Below are positions 3,721 to 58,146 of a DNA stretch of 64,000 nucleotides, piece by piece. The position numbers and the translations under genes were made by a program. The DNA comes from Elusimicrobiota bacterium (GTDB taxonomy: Bacteria; Elusimicrobiota; Elusimicrobia; UBA1565; UBA9628): positions 46,806 through 110,805 of the forward strand of contig DAHVNA010000001.1 of the NCBI GenBank assembly GCA_027319565.1. Direction: 5' to 3'. Under the pieces are notes generated by a model. That model did no database searches and was not told where the DNA came from. It worked only from the letters and a program-made list of their open reading frames with translations. Positions within the stretch are counted from its first letter, which is position 1; each line of letters begins with the position of its first letter.

Positions 3721-4595
3721 GTTCTGGTAAAAAAACGCGCTCAAAGCAGAAAGTTTTTATCATCACCGGCATTTCCGGCGCCGGTAAAAGCCAGGCTTTA
3801 AAGGCCTTTGAGGATTTTGGATTTTTTTGTGTGGACAATCTCCCGCTGACCCTTCTTGGAAATTTCGCGGATTTCTTGACCAAGCGCCGAGACCGCGACA
3901 AGGTTGCCCTGGGGGTCGATATTCGGGAAGGAAAATATCTGGAAGGTTTGCCCCGGCTCCTCAAGAGTTTGCCGCAGAGAGGGATTGATTACCGCATTAT
4001 TTTCCTGGACGCTTCAGATGACATCGTCATTCAGCGATTTTCCGAGACCAGGCATCGGCATCCGCTGGGGCTTAAAATTTCGGAGGCGATCAAGGAAGAA
4101 AGGCGGCAGCTGGAACCGATTAAGGAAATCGCGGATAAACTCATTGACACCAGCGGTCTTACCCTGGGCGAGTTAAAAGAGGTTCTTTCTCAAACTCTGG
4201 AACTTTCCGACGCGGAGGAAATGAATTTGTCGGTGGTCTCTTTCGGATATAAGTACGGAATTCCCCGCGACGCCGATATCGTGCTTGATGTTCGTTTTCT
4301 TCCCAACCCCAATTATGTCGAGAGCCTTAAGAAAAAGACCGGGCTTGATTCCAAGGTGAGAAAATACGTGATGAGTCAGCCTGCGGCGACTAAATTTCTC
4401 GAGGGTTTTTGGCGTTTGGCGCGGGAGCTTTTGCCTCAGTATATTCGCGAGGGCAAGTCTTATTTGACGATCGCCATCGGATGCACCGGCGGCAAGCACC
4501 GGAGCGTGGCGATTACCCATCTTCTCGCTCAAAAGCTTAAGTCCAGCGGTTATCCCGTTCAAGAATTCCATCGCGACATTAGAGATGACTCATGA
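3717..4595 (+). CDS. rapZ: RNase adapter protein RapZ (YvcJ/YhbJ family P-loop protein)
   Basis: VFIITGISGAGKSQALKAFEDFGFFCVDNLP at the N-terminus and CTGGKHRSVA near the C-terminus. ATGA overlap with hprK. Confidence 0.9.
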   Translation: MSSGKKTRSKQKVFIITGISGAGKSQALKAFEDFGFFCVDNLPLTLLGNFADFLTKRRDRDKVALGVDIREGKYLEGLPRLLKSLPQRGIDYRIIFLDASDDIVIQRFSETRHRHPLGLKISEAIKEERRQLEPIKEIADKLIDTSGLTLGELKEVLSQTLELSDAEEMNLSVVSFGYKYGIPRDADIVLDVRFLPNPNYVESLKKKTGLDSKVRKYVMSQPAATKFLEGFWRLARELLPQYIREGKSYLTIAIGCTGGKHRSVAITHLLAQKLKSSGYPVQEFHRDIRDDS

Positions 4596-4858
4596 CCGAG
4601 CGAGAATTTACGATTCCTAATACCTTAGGGCTGCACGCTCGTCCGGCGGCGATTTTGGCCCAGGAAGCGGGGAAATTTAAGAGCGCTATTACCATTTTGA
4701 AAGATGGCCTTGAAGTTAACGGGAAAAGCGTTATGGGACTTATGCTCTTGGCCGCGGAATGCGGTTCAAAACTGCGGATTCGCGCCGACGGCCCAGATGA
4801 AATTCCGGCGCTGGACGCCTTGCGCGCGCTGTTTGACAAAAAATTTGGGGAACAATAG
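4592..4858 (+). CDS. ptsH: Phosphocarrier protein HPr (both His15 and Ser46 contexts present)
   Basis: GLHARPAA (His15 site) and NGKSVMGLMLL (Ser46 site). 88 aa. ATGA overlap with rapZ. Confidence 0.9.
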   Translation: MTEREFTIPNTLGLHARPAAILAQEAGKFKSAITILKDGLEVNGKSVMGLMLLAAECGSKLRIRADGPDEIPALDALRALFDKKFGEQ

Positions 4859-4860
4859 AA

Positions 4861-6579
4861 ATGATTATCGTTAAAGGAATTGGGGCCAGCCGAGGAATTG
4901 CGATTGGAAGCGCTTTTGTCCTCGAGGATGAAGAAGTCGTCGTAACCCGCGTTGAACTGCCCAAACAGCTTTTGAGAGCCGAGGTCAAAAGGTTTAAAGA
5001 AGCGCATAAGGCCGCCCTGCGGGATTTGGACGCCGCCGAAGCCAAGGTTCTTAAGTTTTTAGGGCGAGACCACGCCAAGCTCATTCATGCCCATCGGATG
5101 ATTTTAACGGATACCTTGATTACCAAGGATGTTCCGATGCGCATTATCAAAGAGGGGGTCAATGCGGAGTTCGCCCTTTCGGAATCCGTTGAATCGGTGG
5201 CGCAACAGTTTGAAAAAATAGATGACGATTTCTTTAGGGAAAGAAAACATGATTTGATGGACGTGGCCAAACGCCTCTTGGCCCATCTTCTTAAAAAGAA
5301 TAAAAAATCGATGCCGGCTCCGGCGGAAGGCTCTATTTTGGTCGCGCGAAATCTCTTGCCTTCCGAAACCTTGAGCCTTCATGACTCCAAGGTACTGGGT
5401 TTTGCGACCGATTTGGGCGGAAAGTCAAGCCATACCGCCATTTTAGCCCAGAGTCTGCGCATCCCGGCGGTCGTGGCCTTATCCGATGCCAGCCGCCGGG
5501 TTAAAACCGGAGATTTTCTCATTATCGACGGCGAAAATGGCCTTTTATTTATCGATCCGACTCCGGATGTAGTCGCCAAATATAAGAATCTGCAAGATAA
5601 AGAAAAATTGGCGGAGAAGTCTTTGGAATCCTTGCGCGGGCTTCCGGCGGTGACCGCCGATGGGAGAAAAATCCTGCTTGAGATTAATCTCGACTCCTTG
5701 GAGGAAGTCAAGGGAATTTCCGCTTTAAATCCCGACGGGGTGGGATTATTCCGAACCGAGTATTTGTTCTTAAATCGTCCGGCCCCGCCTTCCGAAAAAG
5801 AGCAGTCGACCATTTATGCCGCGGCTCTTAAAGCCTTGGAGCCGAAATCGGTCGTTTTTCGGACCGCGGATTTGGGCGGCGATCGCGTGGCCGCTTTGGG
5901 AGTGGAAGCGGTGAGAGACGAAGCCAATCCGTTCATGGGACTTAGAGGGGTGCGCCTGTTTTTGCGCCATCAAGAAGTTTTTAAGACTCAAATCCGCGCT
6001 ATTTTGCGGGCCGCCTCCAAAGGCGGACACGCCCGGATTTTAATTCCGATGGTTTCATCCCTATGGGAAATCCAAAGCGTTAAAGACATTATCTCTCAAG
6101 CCAAAACCGAGCTTGAGAAAGAATCGGTCGTGATTCCGGGAAAAATAGAATTGGGGATCATGGTTGAAATTCCATCCGCGGCTATTTTGCTTGACGTCTT
6201 TTTGCCTCATCTGGATTTTGTTTCGATTGGAACCAATGATTTGATTCAATACATACTCGCGGTCGACCGCATCAACGACCACGTCGCGCACCTCTACGAC
6301 GCTTTTCACCCCGCCGTTTTAAGGTTCATCAAGATGATCGTCGATGCGGCGCAAAATCAAAAAAAACGCGTTGGCGTCTGCGGGGAAATGGCCGCGGATT
6401 TAAAAGCAGTGCCCGTTTTGGTGGGGCTTGGGATTGAAGAAATTTCCGTTCCGATGCGCATGCACTTAAGGGTCAAGGAAGTCATTCGTTCACTCAACTA
6501 CAAAGCGCTGTCTGCCAGCGCTTCCAAGGCCTTGGCGGCTTCCGACGCCGAAGAAGTTCGCCGGTTGTTCGGATACTAA
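4861..6579 (+). CDS. ptsI: Phosphoenolpyruvate-protein phosphotransferase (PTS Enzyme I)
   Basis: 572 aa. GGKSSHTAILAQSLRIPAVV contains the phospho-His region. The GLFRTEYLF and SIGTNDLIQY motifs are typical of EI. Confidence 0.95.
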   Translation: MIIVKGIGASRGIAIGSAFVLEDEEVVVTRVELPKQLLRAEVKRFKEAHKAALRDLDAAEAKVLKFLGRDHAKLIHAHRMILTDTLITKDVPMRIIKEGVNAEFALSESVESVAQQFEKIDDDFFRERKHDLMDVAKRLLAHLLKKNKKSMPAPAEGSILVARNLLPSETLSLHDSKVLGFATDLGGKSSHTAILAQSLRIPAVVALSDASRRVKTGDFLIIDGENGLLFIDPTPDVVAKYKNLQDKEKLAEKSLESLRGLPAVTADGRKILLEINLDSLEEVKGISALNPDGVGLFRTEYLFLNRPAPPSEKEQSTIYAAALKALEPKSVVFRTADLGGDRVAALGVEAVRDEANPFMGLRGVRLFLRHQEVFKTQIRAILRAASKGGHARILIPMVSSLWEIQSVKDIISQAKTELEKESVVIPGKIELGIMVEIPSAAILLDVFLPHLDFVSIGTNDLIQYILAVDRINDHVAHLYDAFHPAVLRFIKMIVDAAQNQKKRVGVCGEMAADLKAVPVLVGLGIEEISVPMRMHLRVKEVIRSLNYKALSASASKALAASDAEEVRRLFGY

Positions 6580-21143: not shown

Positions 21144-21276
21144 TGTTTGTTGCGAGCCCTAAGATCGGGGTTTTTTCCGCTATGAGCGGAATACACTTGA
21201 TACCAAAACGCAGACTTGGATCGGCGATTCGGTAGAGCACGTTCTTCGGGTTGCGCTCCGATTGGCCGAGAGGTTA

Positions 21277-21297
21277 ATTATCCTTGTCAAGGATAAT
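21277..21297. repeat. Perfect 10-1-10 palindrome ATTATCCTTG-T-CAAGGATAAT in the intergenic region
   Basis: Read directly from the sequence. Both arms are exact reverse complements. Confidence 0.9.
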
Positions 21298-21357
21298 CCA
21301 GACAAAGGATAACATGAATCTAAAAGTAACTGCTCAGGCCAAGGGAAATCTATCGCG

Positions 21358-21450
21358 TTCTCCCTCTCCCTTGACGGGAGAGGGAGGGGTGAGGGTGAGC
21401 GAAGCTCATCGTCACCCCCCATCCTAACCTTCCCCCGCAGGGGGGGAAGG
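21358..21450 (+). repeat. GC-rich REP-like element with two strong stem-loops
   Basis: CTCCCTCTCCC-ttgac-GGGAGAGGGAG (21360-21386), followed by GGGTGAGGGTGAGC, then CCTTCCCCC-gcagg-GGGGGAAGG (21428-21450). A related element occurs inverted at 26201-26304. Confidence 0.75.
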
Positions 21451-21483
21451 AAATTAACAAAGAGCCTGAGCAGCTATGAGAAT

Positions 21484-21534
21484 TTACCCCAAGAGGGCGA
21501 CGAGCTTGCTGGGAGACGCGGCGCCGCGGACGAT
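21484..21534 (-). repeat. Displaced remnant of a DUF167 gene 3' end (left copy of the island-flanking direct repeat)
   Basis: The 51 nt align without gaps to 25967-26017 with 43/51 identities. The minus strand reads IVRGAASPSKLVALLG-stop, versus IVRGASSPSKLVALLG-stop in the intact gene. An in-frame TAG lies immediately upstream. Confidence 0.8.
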
Positions 21535-21623: not shown

Positions 21624-22151
21624 TTACTCGGGACAGTCTAACAATGCCTTTTCAAATTCTTCCACAAATTTTACAGCTCTTTGATAAAGCTCATATACTT
21701 CTTGTCCTGTTTGTTCTATGTGGTAGGCGGCGAAGTTTTTATGTGCCAATTCGTTCCTTAACCCCCCAATTTGGATAAATGAACGGATGGCTTCCTCTAA
21801 TTCCTGCTCATTCTTAATCTTGACTTGAAAGCTTGTTGAAAAATTGTCGCCAAATAGTTTTAAAAATTTATTTGCGTTTTGCGCTTCCCAGTCGAAATAT
21901 GTGTGATATTGTCTGGAAATCGCTTTTGCTTCCATCAGCGCCTTAATTTTTGAATTATCCTGAGAAGCTTGTAATACAAAATTTCGAATAATCTCCTGAA
22001 TACGCGTCTCAAAATAGCTTGCGGCTGACATGATCAAAATTTTCTTGAGTTTATTGTCAGCATCAATAAATAGTGAAATCTCGTTTTTAGATTTAAGAAA
22101 CTCCAATATCCCTGAATTTTCCTCATACAAGTTGTCAATTGGTGTCGACAC
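21624..22151 (-). CDS. HEPN-motif protein (putative RNase effector), partner of the upstream DUF262 gene
   Basis: 175 aa, helical-looking, with an Rx4H motif in IQIGGLRNELAHKNF. The GTG start lies 7 nt after the DUF262 stop, has no Shine-Dalgarno, and is in another frame (coupled reinitiation likely). AT-rich. Confidence 0.55.
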   Translation of the reverse strand: MSTPIDNLYEENSGILEFLKSKNEISLFIDADNKLKKILIMSAASYFETRIQEIIRNFVLQASQDNSKIKALMEAKAISRQYHTYFDWEAQNANKFLKLFGDNFSTSFQVKIKNEQELEEAIRSFIQIGGLRNELAHKNFAAYHIEQTGQEVYELYQRAVKFVEEFEKALLDCPE

Positions 22152-22158
22152 TTTTGAG

Positions 22159-23331
22159 TTAATAAGATGGGAGAAGCTCTTTTGCTCGTTTGAGCCTCAA
22201 ATTGACTTTTGCCTTGTTCGTGGTTTGTGATTTTATTGCGCTAAGAAAGTCGTCATCTTTCTTTAGAGCCGCTAGTTGGTCGGTAGTAAAGTCCTTTTTT
22301 ACCAGTTCTTTCTTTTGGAACGCTGGCGAGCATATTGCGTAAAAAACCGCCTCATAAATCGTGATATTGAATCTCCCGGGTTTCAGCGTAAACACAGCAG
22401 GATCGACAGAAGCGATGGATTTTAGGAACGAGGCAAACATTTTTCGTCTGTAGCTGATGTCTGCGTCGCTTAAAGATTTACATTGTTTTGAAAACTCGTT
22501 TAGAAAGATTGTCATGGAGGAAGAGTATTTTTCGCTATTTTCCAACATGGCGAATCCCCTTAACAAAACCTCGATATCCTTCATTCGGATATCCAGCTGG
22601 GGAGATGCAAGTAGCTTTCTCCACTGGGAATCTCTATTTAGCTCGGCCAGAAGCTCATAAAACTTAGAGTGATAAAGACTTGCGCGAATTTCTTGCGCCG
22701 CTAGGTTAACTCCACCAGAATTCAGTCTGCTGAATATCTCGTAAATTGAAGAGTCTCCTTCCGGGGAGCTTTGCTTCAAGATTATATTCCTAATGGTCCT
22801 CAGATCGAATGTTGATCTAGTTTCCTCTGTAAGCGTTTTGTAATTGAGGCCATCCAGTGGTCGCCGTTTATCCGGGTCGATTTTTTTTAGCCGGAGATTA
22901 AAGTTGCCAAAGTAATTGTCATTGGCAAGTATTTCATCCGGAATGATCCCGTCTTTGTTGTATATCTGCCGCATCTCTATGCGCTTTTCGTCTTTGGGAA
23001 AGCGACCTATCACAAAAAAATAAATACTTAGCAGGCGTTGCTGCCCATCTACTACAAGAAATTTATTCTTAATTCTAACTTCCTCGAAAAGAAATATCTG
23101 TGGTATTGGCAATCCTAGAATGATCGATTCGATAAGCTTAGATGCGCGTTTTATGTCCCACACGTAATGTCTTTGAAAAGGAGGGAGCTTAAATGTTCCC
23201 TTTTGTATGAAATCAAATATGGTTTTAATGTTGAAATCATTTGGAGCGGAGATAATGTCGTATTCATTAATTCCAATGCCTTCTTCCTGATCCGCCTCGT
23301 CCTTATCAAGCCATCCATTGTCTTCTTCCAT
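22159..23331 (-). CDS. DUF262 (ParB-like NTPase/nuclease N-terminal) domain protein without a DUF1524/HNH domain
   Basis: FKLPPFQRHYVWDIKRASKLIESIILGLPIPQIFLF, FLVVDGQQRLLSIYF and IFSRLNSGGVNLAAQEIRASL. The ATG at 23331 has a GGAGG 6 nt upstream. The longer ORF-track start overlaps vsr. Confidence 0.85.
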   Translation of the reverse strand: MEEDNGWLDKDEADQEEGIGINEYDIISAPNDFNIKTIFDFIQKGTFKLPPFQRHYVWDIKRASKLIESIILGLPIPQIFLFEEVRIKNKFLVVDGQQRLLSIYFFVIGRFPKDEKRIEMRQIYNKDGIIPDEILANDNYFGNFNLRLKKIDPDKRRPLDGLNYKTLTEETRSTFDLRTIRNIILKQSSPEGDSSIYEIFSRLNSGGVNLAAQEIRASLYHSKFYELLAELNRDSQWRKLLASPQLDIRMKDIEVLLRGFAMLENSEKYSSSMTIFLNEFSKQCKSLSDADISYRRKMFASFLKSIASVDPAVFTLKPGRFNITIYEAVFYAICSPAFQKKELVKKDFTTDQLAALKKDDDFLSAIKSQTTNKAKVNLRLKRAKELLPSY

Positions 23332-23348
23332 TTCAATCCTCCAAAAAA

Positions 23349-23765
23349 TTATTTCTGTATTTTCCTTAACATGCGCGTTTGGCATGACTTGGGCATTAGG
23401 CGCACGTCATGCTCCCAGATGCGCGCGATTTCCCAGCCATGCTTTTTGAGTTCGCGATTCTGTTTCTGATCGCGTCGCATATTGCCAGCGATTTTCTTCT
23501 CCCAATATTTTTTGTTGGACTGGGGACGTAGATTGCGCGTACAATGGGCGCAGCCATGCCAAAAGCAACCGTCCACGAAAATGGCGAGCTTTTTCTTTGG
23601 AAAAACGATATCCGGAGCGCCGGGCAAGCCCCGCCCATTCGTCGTCCAGCCTCGAATCCCTTTGGAAATAAGCCAGCCTCGTAGTCGCAATTCGGTCGAG
23701 CGCGTTCCAGTCGATTTAATGGCGGACATGATCTTTGACCGCTTCGCGCGAGAGACGGTGTCCAT
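23349..23765 (-). CDS. vsr: Very short patch repair endonuclease
   Basis: 138 aa. RSKIMSAIKSTGTRSTELRLR..., PGAPDIVFPKKKLAIFVDGCFWHGC and RDQKQNRELKKHGWEIARIWEHD are typical Vsr. Confidence 0.9.
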   Translation of the reverse strand: MDTVSRAKRSKIMSAIKSTGTRSTELRLRGWLISKGIRGWTTNGRGLPGAPDIVFPKKKLAIFVDGCFWHGCAHCTRNLRPQSNKKYWEKKIAGNMRRDQKQNRELKKHGWEIARIWEHDVRLMPKSCQTRMLRKIQK

Positions 23766-23769
23766 CCCA

Positions 23770-24546
23770 TTATTCGCCGCGGTGAACCCTAATCCATGAA
23801 GGATCGAAGCTCATTTCTTTCAATACCGCGGCCGCGGATAAATGCGGCGGTCTACGGACGCTAAATCGCAAGCGATTGGTCGGGACGTTCTCTATTATGG
23901 TGAATTGAGAGCCGGTAAATTGCCATGTGAATCGATGTTGGTTTGTTTGGCGGTCGTATCCTTCCAGATTTTTACGCTTATTCATTTTCCACTGGAATTG
24001 GTCTGGCGGGTACATGATAGTTTCCGTTTCGAACGCGGTGAATTCGGAAAGGTCCGGCCCTTTGATGAGGACGACTGTTCGCATATGAGCGTATCGCGCT
24101 CGGAGATTCCCGACTCGCTCGTTCCATATTTTTAAGACGTCAGAGCCGATGCTCTGCGGATCTCTTTGCATATCGCGTTCATCAAAAGAATATGCGGGAG
24201 AGTTTCTTCCGGAAATAAGGCGAATCTTTGTTATCTCGAAGGGTTTGTTCCCTTTGACCGTTTTCGCGCCCCACGCGCAATTGCCCATGATGACGTCATC
24301 CAGTCCGACGTTCGACGGCTTCCATTCGGCCCCAATCGCGACGGCGAATATTCGTTCCCAAACGCGGCCTTCTATATCTGGTTGCCTGCCGGGGAGACCG
24401 CAGAGGGGGTCGGTCGCTAGGATATAGACTATTTCCCGTCCAACATTTAGGGCGAAGTCGCGGGGGAAAACGTTCAAAGGATAGGGCGGCGGGACTCTCT
24501 CGACCGTTCGGACGCGCGGACGTTTTTCGGGCGTGGGCTCGGGCAT
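23770..24546 (-). CDS. Putative type II restriction endonuclease (family not recognised)
   Basis: 258 aa, located between dcm and vsr with 4-6 nt gaps. A possible PD-(D/E)xK-like region is VGLDDVIMGNCAWGAKTVK. The call rests mainly on context. Confidence 0.5.
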   Translation of the reverse strand: MPEPTPEKRPRVRTVERVPPPYPLNVFPRDFALNVGREIVYILATDPLCGLPGRQPDIEGRVWERIFAVAIGAEWKPSNVGLDDVIMGNCAWGAKTVKGNKPFEITKIRLISGRNSPAYSFDERDMQRDPQSIGSDVLKIWNERVGNLRARYAHMRTVVLIKGPDLSEFTAFETETIMYPPDQFQWKMNKRKNLEGYDRQTNQHRFTWQFTGSQFTIIENVPTNRLRFSVRRPPHLSAAAVLKEMSFDPSWIRVHRGE

Positions 24547-24552
24547 TCTTTT

Positions 24553-25575
24553 CTACGCTAGAGCCATATCTCTAGAGTTTATGGTTTTTTTAGATTGGGA
24601 CTTGACAGGGGTTAGAGCCTTATCCAGCCGCTCAAGAACGGCGCGGATAACGGGAACGGCCACGGAATTTCCCGCTTGTTTTCTTGTTTGGGAATCGTTC
24701 GAGACAATCTCATATGAGTCGGGGAAACCCTGGAGTCGCAACATTTCTCGGGGGGTGAGCCGCCTTTTGCCGTCGACTAAAAGGTAGTTGTATGAGGCTC
24801 CGGCGCGGAGAGCGCAAGAAAATGGATAGGAGCTAACGTGTCCGCCCTTGTTCTCGTGCCATATGGCGGGGCTAAACTTGCTCTTGTGGGCCGCCATGCG
24901 GCTTTTGACGATTCTCTCCGAGGTGAAATGTTTGGAGTCGACATTTTTTTCAAGTATCTCGGCCAAGGGTTTCATTGGCGCTCCGCCTGACGGCCATTCA
25001 AACTTGATGTCCTCCAAGGAGCCTACGATGAGTATTCGTTCTCTTTTCTGGGGCAATCCGAAGTCTAAAGCGTTAAGGACGCGCCAAGAGGTTTTGTAGC
25101 CCAGTTCCGTCAAGGTTTTTAGTATGGCGGAGAGCGTTTTGCCGTTATTGTGGCTGACAAGCCTGCGGACGTTTTCAAGGACGAAAGCGCGCGGTTTTTT
25201 TTCCTTAATGATGCGCGCGATTTCAAAGAAAAGCGTTCCCCTTGCGTCGTCAAAGCCTTTCCCCTCGCCGATGATGCTGAAGGGTTGGCAGGGGAAACCC
25301 GCGAGAAGAACGTCATGGTCGGGGATGCTGGAAGCCGGTATCTGGTGGATGTCTCCGAGAGGCTTTAGTCCAAAGTTTCGCTCGTATGTCCTTCTCGCTT
25401 CATCATCGATGTCGGACGCCATTTCGCATTGCCAACCGAGCGAATTCGCGGCTAAATGGAATCCGCCGATGCCACAGAATAAGTCAATGAACCGTAGGGG
25501 GACCGAGCGAGTCTCATAGTTCCCCTTGCTTTCACGCAACTGATTCTCTCTTGAGTTCCAGTGATGATTCTTCAT
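24553..25575 (-). CDS. dcm: DNA (cytosine-5)-methyltransferase
   Basis: Motif I FIDLFCGIGGF, motif IV GFPCQPFS, motif VI FVLENV, motif VIII QKRERILIVG, motif X GNSVAVPV. The ATG at 25575 (GGGAAGG upstream) is preferred; the ORF-track TTG at 25647 is an alternative. Confidence 0.92.
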   Translation of the reverse strand: MKNHHWNSRENQLRESKGNYETRSVPLRFIDLFCGIGGFHLAANSLGWQCEMASDIDDEARRTYERNFGLKPLGDIHQIPASSIPDHDVLLAGFPCQPFSIIGEGKGFDDARGTLFFEIARIIKEKKPRAFVLENVRRLVSHNNGKTLSAILKTLTELGYKTSWRVLNALDFGLPQKRERILIVGSLEDIKFEWPSGGAPMKPLAEILEKNVDSKHFTSERIVKSRMAAHKSKFSPAIWHENKGGHVSSYPFSCALRAGASYNYLLVDGKRRLTPREMLRLQGFPDSYEIVSNDSQTRKQAGNSVAVPVIRAVLERLDKALTPVKSQSKKTINSRDMALA

Positions 25576-25665
25576 CTTAACCTTCCCAATTATATCAAGT
25601 CTGCCGCGCGTTCGCGCTTCCTGATGCCTTTTGCGCGATTCAGTCAACTGGAGTGGCGCTAGATT

Positions 25666-25878
25666 TCAAAGTCGCTCGCAATTCGCGTATTTGATGCCCA
25701 TCCTGTACGCTTTGTCTGCCGTTAAACGCTTTCCTTTCGACAGAATCGCGATCGTAGTAGAGACGATGCTCATCGCTCTTGAAACGGATTCGTCCGTGCC
25801 GCGTTCATCCAGTTTTGCCAGAGCGGACATCAACACGCTTTCCAATTCCATCGCATTGATTTTTCTCAGTTTTTTCAT
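25666..25878 (-). CDS. Small hypothetical protein at the head of the island operon (possible regulator)
   Basis: 70 aa with a strong GGAAGGAGG RBS upstream of the ATG. No canonical Xre-type C-protein HTH was recognised. Confidence 0.4.
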   Translation of the reverse strand: MKKLRKINAMELESVLMSALAKLDERGTDESVSRAMSIVSTTIAILSKGKRLTADKAYRMGIKYANCERL

Positions 25879-25966
25879 TTACCCGCCTCCTTCCTCATCC
25901 TTATTACGGGTTAGGGGGCATATTTGTTCCCCGAACGTTTAGGTTTCGCGGCTTTGTTAGGAAAAA

Positions 25967-26191
25967 TTACCCAAGCAGGGCGACGAGCTTGCTGGGGGAA
26001 CTCGCGCCGCGGACGATTTTAAGGCGCTTGGCTTTAACGCCGAGATGCTGGGCGAGAAGGGAGAGAACCGCGGCGTTGGCGCGGCCGTTTTCAGGTTTAG
26101 CCTTCACATCGATGGCGAAAGAATGCGGGGCCGTTGAAATTATGAAATTGCGGCGGGCTTCGGCGCGGACTTTAACCTTAAAGAGAGTCAT
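25967..26191 (-). CDS. DUF167 (YggU-like) family protein
   Basis: 74 aa. ...FAIDVKAKPENGRANAAVLSLLAQHLGVKAKRLKIVRGASSPSKLV matches the DUF167 pattern (KP.A..G.AN..l...la..l...k..i.i..G..sr.K). The ATG overlaps the upstream stop (ATGA). Confidence 0.75.
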   Translation of the reverse strand: MTLFKVKVRAEARRNFIISTAPHSFAIDVKAKPENGRANAAVLSLLAQHLGVKAKRLKIVRGASSPSKLVALLG

Positions 26192-27120
26192 GAGTTAATT
26201 GACCCCTCACCCTTGCCCTCTGCCTTCACTCGCGAAGCGAGAGCGTGCCGGAGCATCTTTGGGAAAGACGTTATGCTCCGGCCTCCCGCAAGGGGAGAGG
26301 GAGAAATAATGGTTTCTATTTTTTCTTCCAGTCGCCCGAGAAGCCTTAAAAGCCCGTCCAGGATTGTGAGGGGGTGGGGCGGGCATCCCGGAATGAAGAG
26401 ATCCACTGGAACAAGCGCGGCCGCTCCTCCCAGATGCTCTTTAGAATCCATAAACGGCCCGCCGCTGATCGCGCAGGCGCCGATGGCGATGACGATTTTG
26501 GGCGCCGGAACCGCTTGATAGGCCAATTGAAGGGCCTCTTTCATATGATTGGTGACGGGCCCCGTGATGATAAGGCCGTCGGCGTGCCGGGGAGAAGCGA
26601 CAAATTGAATGCCAAAGCGGCCCAAATCAAAGACGACATTGTTTAAGGCCGTTAATTCCGCCTCGCAGGCGCTGCAGCCCCCGGCGCTGACCTGCCTTAG
26701 TTTAAGGGAACGCCCAAAAAGGCGGCGCATTTCTTCTTTTAATGACGTGGCTAATTTCGCCTCTTGAGACTGGATGAGTAGATCTTCCCTTTGATTGGCG
26801 GCCAAGCGGTGATTGCAGGTAAAGACGATCGCGCCCTCCGGGCAACTTTTCGCGCACTCCCCGCAAAAAAGGCAGCGGCCCATATCCAAGGACAGGGTTT
26901 TTTTCTCGGGGTTATGTCCTTCTTGAAGGGCCTGGGTCGGGCATACGCTCAAACAATCGGCGCAGCCCGAGGCGCATAAATCTTGGTTGACTTCGGGGCG
27001 TCCGCGAAAACGTTCCGGAAACTCCGGGTTTTCCTTTGGAAAATTCGAGGTTCGGTATCCCTGTTTGAAGCGGTTTTTGATGATTTCAATCATAGCGGTC
27101 TCATAAATCATGTCCGGCAT
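26188..27120 (-). CDS. Fused 2x[4Fe-4S] ferredoxin (HycF/NuoI-like) and NuoB/HycG-like small subunit
   Basis: N-terminal CASGCADCLSVCP and CLFCGECAKSCP. C-terminal SAGGCSACEAE, IGACAISGGPF and IPGCPPHP (NuoB-type cluster ligands). About 40 C-terminal residues are encoded by the REP-like element. Confidence 0.8.
   Translation of the reverse strand: MPDMIYETAMIEIIKNRFKQGYRTSNFPKENPEFPERFRGRPEVNQDLCASGCADCLSVCPTQALQEGHNPEKKTLSLDMGRCLFCGECAKSCPEGAIVFTCNHRLAANQREDLLIQSQEAKLATSLKEEMRRLFGRSLKLRQVSAGGCSACEAELTALNNVVFDLGRFGIQFVASPRHADGLIITGPVTNHMKEALQLAYQAVPAPKIVIAIGACAISGGPFMDSKEHLGGAAALVPVDLFIPGCPPHPLTILDGLLRLLGRLEEKIETIISPSPLAGGRSITSFPKMLRHALASRVKAEGKGEGSINS
26201..26304 (-). repeat. Second REP-like GC-rich element (inverted relative to 21358-21450), lying inside a coding sequence
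   Basis: Minus strand reads TCTCCCTCTCCCCTTGCGGGAG...CCGGAGCAT-(16 nt)-ATGCTCCGG...GAGGGCAAGGGTGAGGGGTC. It shares the TTCTCCCTCTCCC..TTG.CGGGAG head and the GGGTGAGGG tail with the first element. Confidence 0.65.
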
Positions 27121-58072: not shown

Positions 58073-58146
58073 GCGGGCGTGGTTCAATGGTAGAACGGGT
58101 CCTTGCCAAGGATCAGACGAGGGTTCGATTCCCTTCGCCCGCTCCA
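58073..58146 (+). tRNA. tRNA-Gly (anticodon GCC), CCA encoded
   Basis: Hand-folded cloverleaf. Acceptor GCGGGCG/CGCCCGC, D arm GTTC-AATGGTA-GAAC, anticodon arm GGTCC-TTGCCAA-GGATC, T arm GAGGG-TTCGATT-CCCTT, discriminator T, then CCA. Confidence 0.93.

Follow-up and report, generated by a model that had tools for sequence, protein, structure and literature searches.

The distal end of a restriction-modification (R-M) island in an Elusimicrobiota genome carries a gene for a DUF262 protein (gene A) directly followed by a gene for a small HEPN protein (gene B). This locus raises the question of whether the two genes form a defence module in their own right and, if so, whether that module is a new one. 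Based on an analysis of the surrounding window, which is the whole stretch of 64,000 nucleotides studied here, and of related loci in other genomes, we propose that the pair is probably a two-gene anti-phage module with the architecture of PD-T4-2. The features on which the argument draws are collected in Table 1.

Table 1 Features of the island and its edges, with positions in the window.
Feature	Position	Strand	Evidence
Left direct repeat, 60 nt, displaced pseudo-3' end of yggU, island edge	21475-21534	.	Repeat search and alignments
Gene B, stand-alone RiboL-PSP-family HEPN, 175 aa, GTG start	21624-22151	(-)	PF18735 E=7.3e-21
A-B spacer, 7 nt, no Shine-Dalgarno box	22152-22158	(-)	Sequence
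Gene A, DUF262/GmrSD_N protein, 390 aa	22159-23331	(-)	PF03235 E=2.6e-32; PADLOC NsnA 3e-58, PD-T4-2_A 1.3e-41
Shine-Dalgarno box GGAGG of gene A, within the 17-nt vsr-A spacer	23338-23342	(-)	Read from sequence
vsr, very-short-patch repair endonuclease, 17 nt upstream of gene A	23349-23765	(-)	PF03852 and TIGR00632, E=3e-35
258-aa ORF between dcm and vsr, probable type II restriction endonuclease	23770-24546	(-)	No known family
dcm-type C-5 cytosine DNA methyltransferase	24553-25647	(-)	PF00145 E=3.7e-88, TIGR00675
Right direct repeat, 3' end of intact yggU (DUF167), other island edge	25958-26017	.	Repeat search, alignments, empty site in L175/L176

The product of gene A combines a ParB/Srx-fold DUF262 NTPase domain with a helical C-terminal (ParBDB-like) domain, and its N-terminal tail (residues 1-30) is acidic and disordered. 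The original prediction had described a 390-aa product with a full DUF262 signature, and this description is borne out by the motifs FQRHYVW, VVDGQQRL and FSRLNSGG, by the invariance of the residues FQR..VW, DGQQR and F.RLN.GG in an alignment of 31 homologues, and by PF03235, the sole domain detected by Pfam. The longest open reading frame from the first ATG extends over 22159-23385(-) and comprises 408 aa. The start at 23331, which gives the 390-aa product, has a GGAGG box 6 nt upstream and agrees with the lengths of homologues and with the public gene call (P0036). The PADLOC NsnA model matches gene A over its full length (3.1e-58, residues 19-405 of the 408-aa frame), and DUF262 relatives of the protein number in the thousands. 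An AF2 model of the protein has a mean pLDDT of 77; most of the C-terminal domain exceeds 90, and the N-terminal tail is at about 32. A Foldseek search with this model placed BrxU (7p9k) first with a probability of 0.99, followed by weak matches to ParB, Noc and KorB. The protein had also been said to carry no recognisable nuclease, which agrees with our searches: Pfam detected no DUF1524/HNH nuclease domain, no histidine is invariant within residues 220-390 of the 31 aligned homologues, and Foldseek on the C-terminal half returned no nuclease match.

The product of gene B had been read as a HEPN protein, and PF18735 covers it over its full length (residues 7-171). Its HEPN motif, IGGLRNELAHKNF, contains R132-N133-x3-H137, so that the spacing R132-x4-H137 fits Rx4-6H. 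These three residues are invariant in 33 homologues, and among 146 cluster representatives of gene B relatives, which share at most 50% identity, R132 is kept in 100% and both N133 and H137 in 99%. Such near-absolute conservation argues for a catalytic role, and we regard gene B as encoding a predicted RNase effector. A profile search with the protein recovered 906 clusters at 50% identity. The AF2 model is all-alpha with a pLDDT of 92. Foldseek of this model against the PDB returned nothing at E<=1e-3, with Csm6 (6tug) and a toxin-antitoxin entry (7bxo) appearing at E ~3, and a PDB profile search gave nothing relevant, only designed repeat proteins. The putative HEPN fold is assigned on the basis of the Pfam match and the R-N-x3-H motif.

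The junction between the two genes is laid out as first described. The TAA of gene A (22159-22161) is followed, after the short spacer, by the GTG of gene B (22149-22151) in a different frame, and we found no purine-rich box upstream of this GTG when reading the sequence. The GTG lies inside a predicted hairpin (RNA fold -23.9 kcal/mol, z=-2.7). Translation of gene B is probably coupled to that of gene A.

A DUF262 protein joined to a PF18735 HEPN protein is also the architecture of PD-T4-2, and the window pair is thus not a new system. PD-T4-2 of E. coli ECOR65 (QOYX01000002; Vassallo 2022) is catalogued as 'DUF262, HEPN', and HHpred places its proteins A and B in PF03235 and PF18735, respectively (PMC9519451, Tables S1-S3). 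It protects E. coli against T4 both when cloned and in the native strain ECOR65, which is sensitised by its deletion (PMC9519451). The window pair shares with it the two-gene operon, an N-terminal DUF262 domain (PF03235) without DUF1524 in gene A, and a stand-alone RiboL-PSP HEPN protein (PF18735) of ~165-180 aa as gene B. The same association was listed even earlier, in a table that describes Ribo L-PSP-HEPN as 'Fused to endoRNase L-PSP; operon with ParB' and gives Rx4-6H as a conserved motif (Anantharaman 2013, PMC3710099). That entry is a computational catalogue entry only, to which our analysis adds counts for the pairing and a definition of the clade, its spacing and its mobility. The view that the pair was an unnamed and uncharacterised system consequently had to be abandoned.

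The window pair nevertheless differs from PD-T4-2 in several respects. Its proteins are slightly longer (390 and 175 aa, compared with a system of 1540 bp in ECOR65), its host is an Elusimicrobiota bacterium, and it is joined to an m5C R-M/vsr block. The PADLOC PD-T4-2_B model matches gene B only marginally (E=1.1e-3), and the PD-T4-2_A model matches gene A at ~1e-40, below what a close member would be expected to score, which together point to a different clade. Judged by these model scores, the window pair is placed in a separate, large clade from PD-T4-2. The PADLOC model of the HEPN partner is likewise marginal on the E. coli prophage and Akkermansia phage members of the clade that were tested, and the pairs on E. 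coli and Salmonella IncX1 plasmids are not close to the PADLOC PD-T4-2 models. A blastn search of E. coli genomes with an Erwinia clade-1 pair recovered a prophage-borne pair other than PD-T4-2, and the same search with a gammaproteobacterial clade-2 pair at a distant setting found nothing. Since the PD-T4-2_B model barely detects these HEPN proteins, members of the clade may be unannotated or carry a truncated HEPN call; in the public records of the source genome the HEPN gene call is truncated.

A second clade has the same layout, with A proteins that are 30-35% identical to that of the window and downstream proteins that all match PF18735 (19/19). Some of its HEPN proteins also match PADLOC PD-T4-2_B (best 1.4e-6), and hhalign relates the two HEPN clades with a probability of 97.9%. 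The HEPN clade of the window has an extra near-invariant motif, RQYHTYFxW, which the second HEPN clade lacks in our alignment. At one clade-2 locus an AIPR abortive-infection protein stands in place of the HEPN protein, a replacement that fits a sensor with a swappable effector.

Recurrence of the pair in other genomes, in the same order and with a short gap, had been named as a point to check, and our counts show an obligate, closely spaced pair; none of the observations listed beforehand as contradicting the prediction was made. When DUF262 proteins at least 40% identical to gene A were taken in, the next gene along the same strand encoded a HEPN protein in 53 of 54 genomes. Conversely, of the 74 HEPN-bearing metagenome contigs with room upstream, 71 have a DUF262 gene as the immediate upstream neighbour of HEPN. 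Gaps between the two genes are mostly -4 to +15 nt, with overlaps of -4 or -1 nt at 16 of the 54 loci. The distance matrices of A and B are correlated (r=0.59; 0 of 999 Mantel permutations were as high), and B evolves faster than A (mean pairwise identity 36% vs 49%). The gene order (A, then B), the close spacing and the parallel divergence of the two proteins are maintained in many bacterial phyla, in some archaea, on plasmids and in a phage, with carriers that include Akkermansia phage Chambord, an Exiguobacterium plasmid, IncX1 plasmids and an E. coli prophage. In 50 of 51 genomes, the G+C content of the pair falls below that of its flanks. Upstream neighbours are heterogeneous across 47 loci, for which reason we rejected a conserved third gene of the module.

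Several of these properties could alternatively be read as those of an addiction module resembling toxin-antitoxin (TA) systems, in which A would restrain B as a HEPN toxin and the pair would primarily stabilise its carrier DNA, with defence secondary. HEPN toxins are common in TA systems, the putative toxin gene comes second in a tightly coupled pair, B is the faster evolving partner, and the pair adjoins the replication gene of IncX1 plasmids in addition to being carried by the Exiguobacterium plasmid and prophages. However, protein A, with its 390 aa, invariant NTPase site and DNA-binding-type domain, far exceeds what an antitoxin needs, and PD-T4-2, of the same architecture, protects against T4 and sensitises its native strain when deleted. 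Taken with the lack of an MNT partner among the neighbours (Pfam) and of an RNA-antitoxin repeat, this makes the addiction reading unlikely in our assessment. A HEPN-MNT or type III (RNA antitoxin) TA system in the narrower sense was rejected, as there is no MNT gene adjacent to the pair, no meaningful tandem-repeat array that could serve as an RNA antitoxin at the region, and no match to Rfam families in the region.

Among characterised DUF262 systems, NsnA of Menshen (NsnABC; Millman 2022; Li et al. 2025, PMC12065111) shares with gene A the ParB-DUF262 domain and the helical C-terminal (ParBDB) layout. Unlike Menshen, the window has neither the NsnB ATPase nor the NsnC inPIN-nuclease effector and encodes a single HEPN protein instead; membership in Menshen was rejected because NsnB and NsnC are absent downstream of gene A. 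The type IV and PT-sensing DUF262-DUF1524 enzymes GmrSD, BrxU and SspE share the DUF262 NTPase with its DGQQR motif, followed by a helical middle domain. In contrast to these enzymes, the window pair lacks the DUF1524 His-Me nuclease, and its effector is a separate protein of the RNase-type HEPN family rather than a DNase. With DUF1524 neither fused nor adjacent, membership in the GmrSD family of type IV enzymes was also rejected.

A type IV-like mode of action would still be conceivable if the DUF262 protein itself nicked or cut DNA and the HEPN protein were a non-catalytic or regulatory partner. ParB-fold domains were treated as DNase domains in Anantharaman 2013 (PMC3710099), the closest structural relative of A is the type IV enzyme BrxU, and PD-T4-2 was selected on T4, with T4-selected systems generally also protecting against T2 and T6 (modified-cytosine DNA). 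In GmrSD, BrxU and SspE, however, cutting is performed by DUF1524, whereas DUF262 acts as the NTPase or sensor (PMC10952713, PMC12065111). The absence of DUF1524 and of an invariant histidine in the C-terminal half of A, together with the near-absolute conservation of R, N and H in gene B, also speaks against DNA cleavage by A, and we consider this alternative very improbable.

We instead favour an anti-phage module in which a sensor licenses an RNase. This proposal draws on the analogy with GmrSD, BrxU and SspE, where DUF262 reads DNA and activates an attached nuclease, and on the RNase chemistry of HEPN proteins; GmrSD and SspE use DUF262 as an NTPase sensor, and ParBDB has been described as a DNA-binding domain (PMC12065111, PMC10952713). 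On binding DNA, protein A would detect a feature peculiar to phages, with modified cytosines as the most plausible candidate. By binding or hydrolysing NTP, A would then release or activate protein B, and a HEPN dimer of B would cleave cellular or phage RNA (tRNA or mRNA) and so stop the infection, with growth arrest as the probable cost of this RNA cleavage. The window pair adds no new principle and leaves the kinds of systems known unchanged. It belongs to a class of defence module that is very widespread and has drawn no mechanistic study, and its clade offers highly conserved, compact proteins in which to study how a ParB-fold NTPase may switch on an RNase.

In the Elusimicrobiota genome, the pair forms the distal end of a dcm-REase-vsr-DUF262-HEPN island of ~4.4 kb, which is inserted at the 3' end of yggU and beyond which, after gene B, lies the convergent pckG. 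The two 60-nt direct repeat copies at its edges are 82% identical, and the insertion site is empty in the close relatives L175 and L176. The island is horizontally acquired. The pair is also compositionally foreign, with a G+C content of 36.2% in the HEPN gene and 40.9% in the DUF262 gene, compared with 52.0% in vsr, 52.8% in the REase candidate, 51.6% in dcm and 49.9% in the whole window. The AT-richness noted in the original prediction therefore stands, but the neighbouring genes lie at ~52% and not in the mid-50s as had been estimated, a small discrepancy and the only one, as all other sequence observations of the prediction were reproduced.

The arrangement of the island suggests a further possibility, namely that the pair works here as a component of the m5C R-M operon rather than by itself, for example as a back-up when R-M is bypassed or lost. 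The five genes share one strand and are separated by 6, 4, 17 and 7 nt. Around the vsr/A junction we detected no promoter-like site on the minus strand; a scan of the region for promoters and terminators gave counts not above those of shuffled sequence. A syntenic five-gene block is present in another host, in which the flanking genes have a G+C content of ~62%, with identities to the window of 79% for dcm, 73% for the REase, 63% for vsr, 63% for A and 48% for B. In Akkermansia phage Chambord a C5-MTase gene overlaps the start of A, and 9 of 160 other loci have a C5-MTase homologue within their flanks. In most genomes, however, the upstream neighbours are unrelated, with PF00145 in only 2 of 89 upstream ORFs and diverse housekeeping or other defence genes making up the remainder. 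The G+C content of the pair is below that of the R-M genes in both syntenic blocks, which points to a separate origin. Moreover, PD-T4-2 functions when cloned alone, and co-location with R-M genes is an ordinary defence-island pattern. We thus regard a functional dependence on the R-M operon as distinctly unlikely.

A more integrated arrangement, in which the pair would be the fixed, co-transcribed cistrons 4 and 5 of a dcm-REase-vsr operon and the block would move as a unit between distant hosts, also seems to us an unlikely one. In such a hybrid the sensor would be tuned to cytosine modification or to the failure or loss of R-M, and the HEPN RNase would form a second layer. The island, its empty-site comparator and the syntenic copy in another host provide a natural comparison for asking whether R-M and DUF262-HEPN cooperate.

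Concerning the R-M genes themselves, public gene calls (L084) start dcm at an internal ATG, giving a product of 340 aa. The 258-aa REase candidate has no match in Pfam, NCBIfam or PADLOC, nor in a plasmid tblastn search, and a homologue that is 73% identical occupies the same position in L089/L091.

The stretch carries a new, divergent DUF262-HEPN gene pair of the PD-T4-2 type. Two adjacent minus-strand ORFs of 390 and 175 aa (genes A and B, respectively) had been reported, and both were recovered at exactly the same coordinates. The original sequence observations were confirmed. Gene A encodes a DUF262 protein and gene B a HEPN protein, both with intact catalytic motifs. Protein A has PF03235 (GmrSD_N/DUF262) as its sole Pfam match (2.6e-32), and its FQR..VW, DGQQR and F.RLN.GG motifs are invariant across 31 aligned homologues, in line with the full DUF262 signature originally described. 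The absence of a His-Me/HNH pattern from its C-terminal part also held, since these homologues share no invariant His in this half, so that a hidden His-Me/HNH site can be ruled out. By sequence reading, GGAGG lies 6 nt before the ATG of gene A. A 408-aa reading starting at an ATG at 23385 was rejected, as it overlaps vsr and is unsupported by homologues and the public gene call.

Features of the pair and its surroundings in the window
Feature	Position	Strand	Description
Segment between pckG and pseudo-yggU end	21144-21474		about 330 nt
REP-like palindromes	21358-21386		G+C-rich, CTCCCTTGACGGGAGAGGGAG
Direct repeat, first copy	21475-21534		60 nt; duplicated 3' end of yggU (DUF167); 82% identity between copies; bounds insert
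Gene B	21624-22151	-	175 aa, GTG start
RQYHTYFxW loop of B	21885-21914	-	residues 80-89
Gene A	22159-23331	-	390 aa, DUF262/GmrSD_N
Acidic tail of A	23242-23331	-	residues 1-30
258-aa ORF	23770-24546	-	probable REase, between dcm and vsr
70-aa ORF	25666-25878	-	dcm-proximal island end
Direct repeat, second copy	25958-26017		as first copy
Related REP-like copy	26283-26305		
tRNA gene	58073-58143	+	
dcm, 258-aa ORF, vsr, A, B		one strand	gaps 6, 4, 17, 7 nt

The AlphaFold model of A starts with a disordered acidic tail (pLDDT about 32), continues into an alpha/beta domain resembling ParB and ends in a helical C-terminal domain (pLDDT mostly >90). The only significant Foldseek match of this model in the PDB was BrxU, a GmrSD-family enzyme (probability 0.99), followed by weaker matches to ParB/Noc/KorB CTPases; that the ParB-like domain itself cuts DNA seems very improbable to us. 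The ParB-DUF262 plus ParBDB layout is common to A and NsnA, the DUF262 sensor of Menshen, whose C-terminal domain has been argued to bind DNA (Li et al. 2025, PMC12065111). PADLOC likewise matched A to NsnA over its full length (3.1e-58) and to PD-T4-2_A (1.3e-41). DUF262 proteins of clade 1, the sequence clade of the window's pair, have in common a disordered, strongly acidic N-terminal tail, 25-50 aa long, with 9-15 D/E, usually 0-2 K/R and a conserved W-x-D, which might serve as a DNA mimic or autoinhibitory segment.

Protein B, originally assigned to HEPN from its motif, matches HEPN_RiboL-PSP (PF18735) over residues 7-171 (7.3e-21). None of 33 homologues deviates at R132, N133 or H137, and among 146 representatives of 50%-identity clusters these residues are conserved at 100%, 99% and 99%, respectively. 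The AF2 model is all-helical (pLDDT 92), and neither Foldseek against the PDB nor a PDB profile search returned a significant solved relative, so the HEPN assignment derives from the Pfam profile and the motif. Public gene calls of the same organism (compare L084, 9301-9708) shorten this gene to 135 aa, from an internal ATG, or to 160 aa, from a TTG. The 175-aa GTG start is favoured over both because the N-terminal 40 residues align with homologues, and the predicted model favours it as well. A HEPN profile search found 906 clusters at E<=1e-3, and the matches listed are, with few exceptions, stand-alone proteins about 170-200 aa long. The RQYHTYFxW loop is near-invariant in clade-1 HEPNs (R80, Y82, H83, F86 and W88, 91-99% conserved) and absent from clade 2, a second DUF262-HEPN clade, in an alignment of both; it may form a second functional site.

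The A-then-B pairing is obligate, and its spacing fits translational coupling. As originally noted, the GTG of B lies 7 nt past the TAA of A, the two genes are in different frames, and no Shine-Dalgarno sequence precedes the GTG; this start codon also falls inside a predicted hairpin (z=-2.7). Scanning one genome per species with a DUF262 alignment yielded 80 loci. Of these, 54 are at least 40% identical to A, and 53 of them have a B homologue directly 3' on the same strand; the remaining one is a truncated match. Conversely, A is directly 5' of B in 71 of 74 metagenomic contigs having a B homologue and room upstream. Gaps are mostly -4 to +15 nt, including ten ATGA-type and six 1-nt overlaps.

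The pair is horizontally mobile and its genes have co-diverged, with pairwise distances correlated at r=0.59 (0/999 Mantel permutations that high) and B evolving faster than A (mean identity 36% vs 49%). Hosts include Chloroflexota, Bacteroidota, Actinomycetota, Pseudomonadota, Bacillota, Cyanobacteria, Methanobacteriota and Nitrosopumilaceae, and carriers include Akkermansia phage Chambord, an Exiguobacterium plasmid and a lambdoid prophage of E. coli NRG 857C. Of 5,426 complete E. coli genomes, 31 have the clade-1 pair of this prophage (3928-5644 of locus L177; A 46% and B 37% identical to the window). It adjoins a truncated major-capsid gene. A DUF262-PF18735 pair also sits beside the replication gene of E. 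coli/Salmonella IncX1 plasmids (p573-5; L081 2923-4563). A toxin-antitoxin-like addiction module is an unlikely alternative reading of this mobile two-gene unit; the predicted defence module of DUF262 sensor and HEPN effector is supported.

The suggestion that the system is unnamed was not supported. PD-T4-2 from E. coli ECOR65, annotated 'DUF262, HEPN' (two genes, 1,540 bp), has the same architecture, with HHpred matches to PF03235 (protein A, 99.7%) and PF18735 (protein B, 97.8%); once cloned it protects against T4, and its deletion sensitises the native strain (Vassallo et al. 2022, PMC9519451). A 'Ribo L-PSP-HEPN ... operon with ParB' was already tabulated in 2013 (Anantharaman et al., PMC3710099). 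The architecture is thus both known and named. Reviews group PD-T4-2, Menshen and Dazbog as DUF262 systems without DUF1524; our literature search found no mechanistic study of PD-T4-2. Judging from PADLOC model scores, the window's pair is probably not closely related to the pair that was tested: PD-T4-2_A scores about 1e-40 for A, as for every clade sampled, and PD-T4-2_B reaches only 1.1e-3 for B and has no convincing match to the HEPN of the NRG 857C prophage or p573-5. The interest of the pair lies mainly in clade breadth, marginal detection by current models and its natural R-M-linked variant.

By analogy with GmrSD, BrxU and SspE, A would bind DNA and recognise some feature specific to the phage, for which modified cytosine is a plausible candidate. 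When A binds or hydrolyses NTP, B could then be released or activated and, as in HEPN biology generally, may cleave RNA as a dimer and abort infection. Clade 2 (30-35% identity in A) has the same layout, and its downstream proteins of about 155-165 aa match PF18735 in 19/19 cases, some also matching PD-T4-2_B (best 1.4e-6); hhalign relates the HEPNs of both clades with 97.9% probability. At one clade-2 locus (L064 6002-7771), a 589-aa AIPR (PF10592) abortive-infection protein replaces the HEPN after DUF262, which suggests one DUF262 sensor with exchangeable effectors.

The direct repeat bounds an insert of about 4.4 kb, within which no integrase or transposase was found; in a relative with 92%-identical PEPCK the site is empty, pckG being directly convergent on yggU (L175 10740-10900). 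The segment carrying the REP-like palindromes is missing there too. PEPCK relatives show the host of the window to be an Elusimicrobiota MAG. Searches of Pfam, NCBIfam and PADLOC and a tblastn against plasmids gave no match for the 258-aa ORF, presumably the cognate restriction endonuclease. The nearest A homologues (63%) lie in the same five-gene block elsewhere (L089 5763-9760, L091 182-4179), beside paa and aldehyde-dehydrogenase genes (flank G+C 61-64%), with identity to the window falling along the block (dcm 79%, REase 73%, vsr 63%, A 63%, B 48%). As originally noted, A and B are AT-rich (40.9% and 36.2% G+C vs 51.6-52.8% in the three upstream genes and 49.9% in the whole window); they are the most AT-rich genes of the L089/L091 block too, and the pair is AT-richer than its flanks in 50/51 genomes (median difference -13 G+C points). 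Elsewhere its neighbours are heterogeneous: C5-methylases make up 2/89 upstream ORFs, and a C5-MTase homologue occurs somewhere in the flanks of 9/160 other loci. We consider it rather improbable that the pair is an integral part of an R-M operon, and read the co-location as the clustering usual in defence islands, together with one sub-lineage in which the pair is welded to an R-M/vsr cassette. Every contig of this organism has the 70-aa ORF, which lacks a Pfam match and is absent from the L089 syntenic block; it could be a controller/regulatory protein or spurious. Apart from the single tRNA gene, Rfam matched nothing within the 64-kb window.
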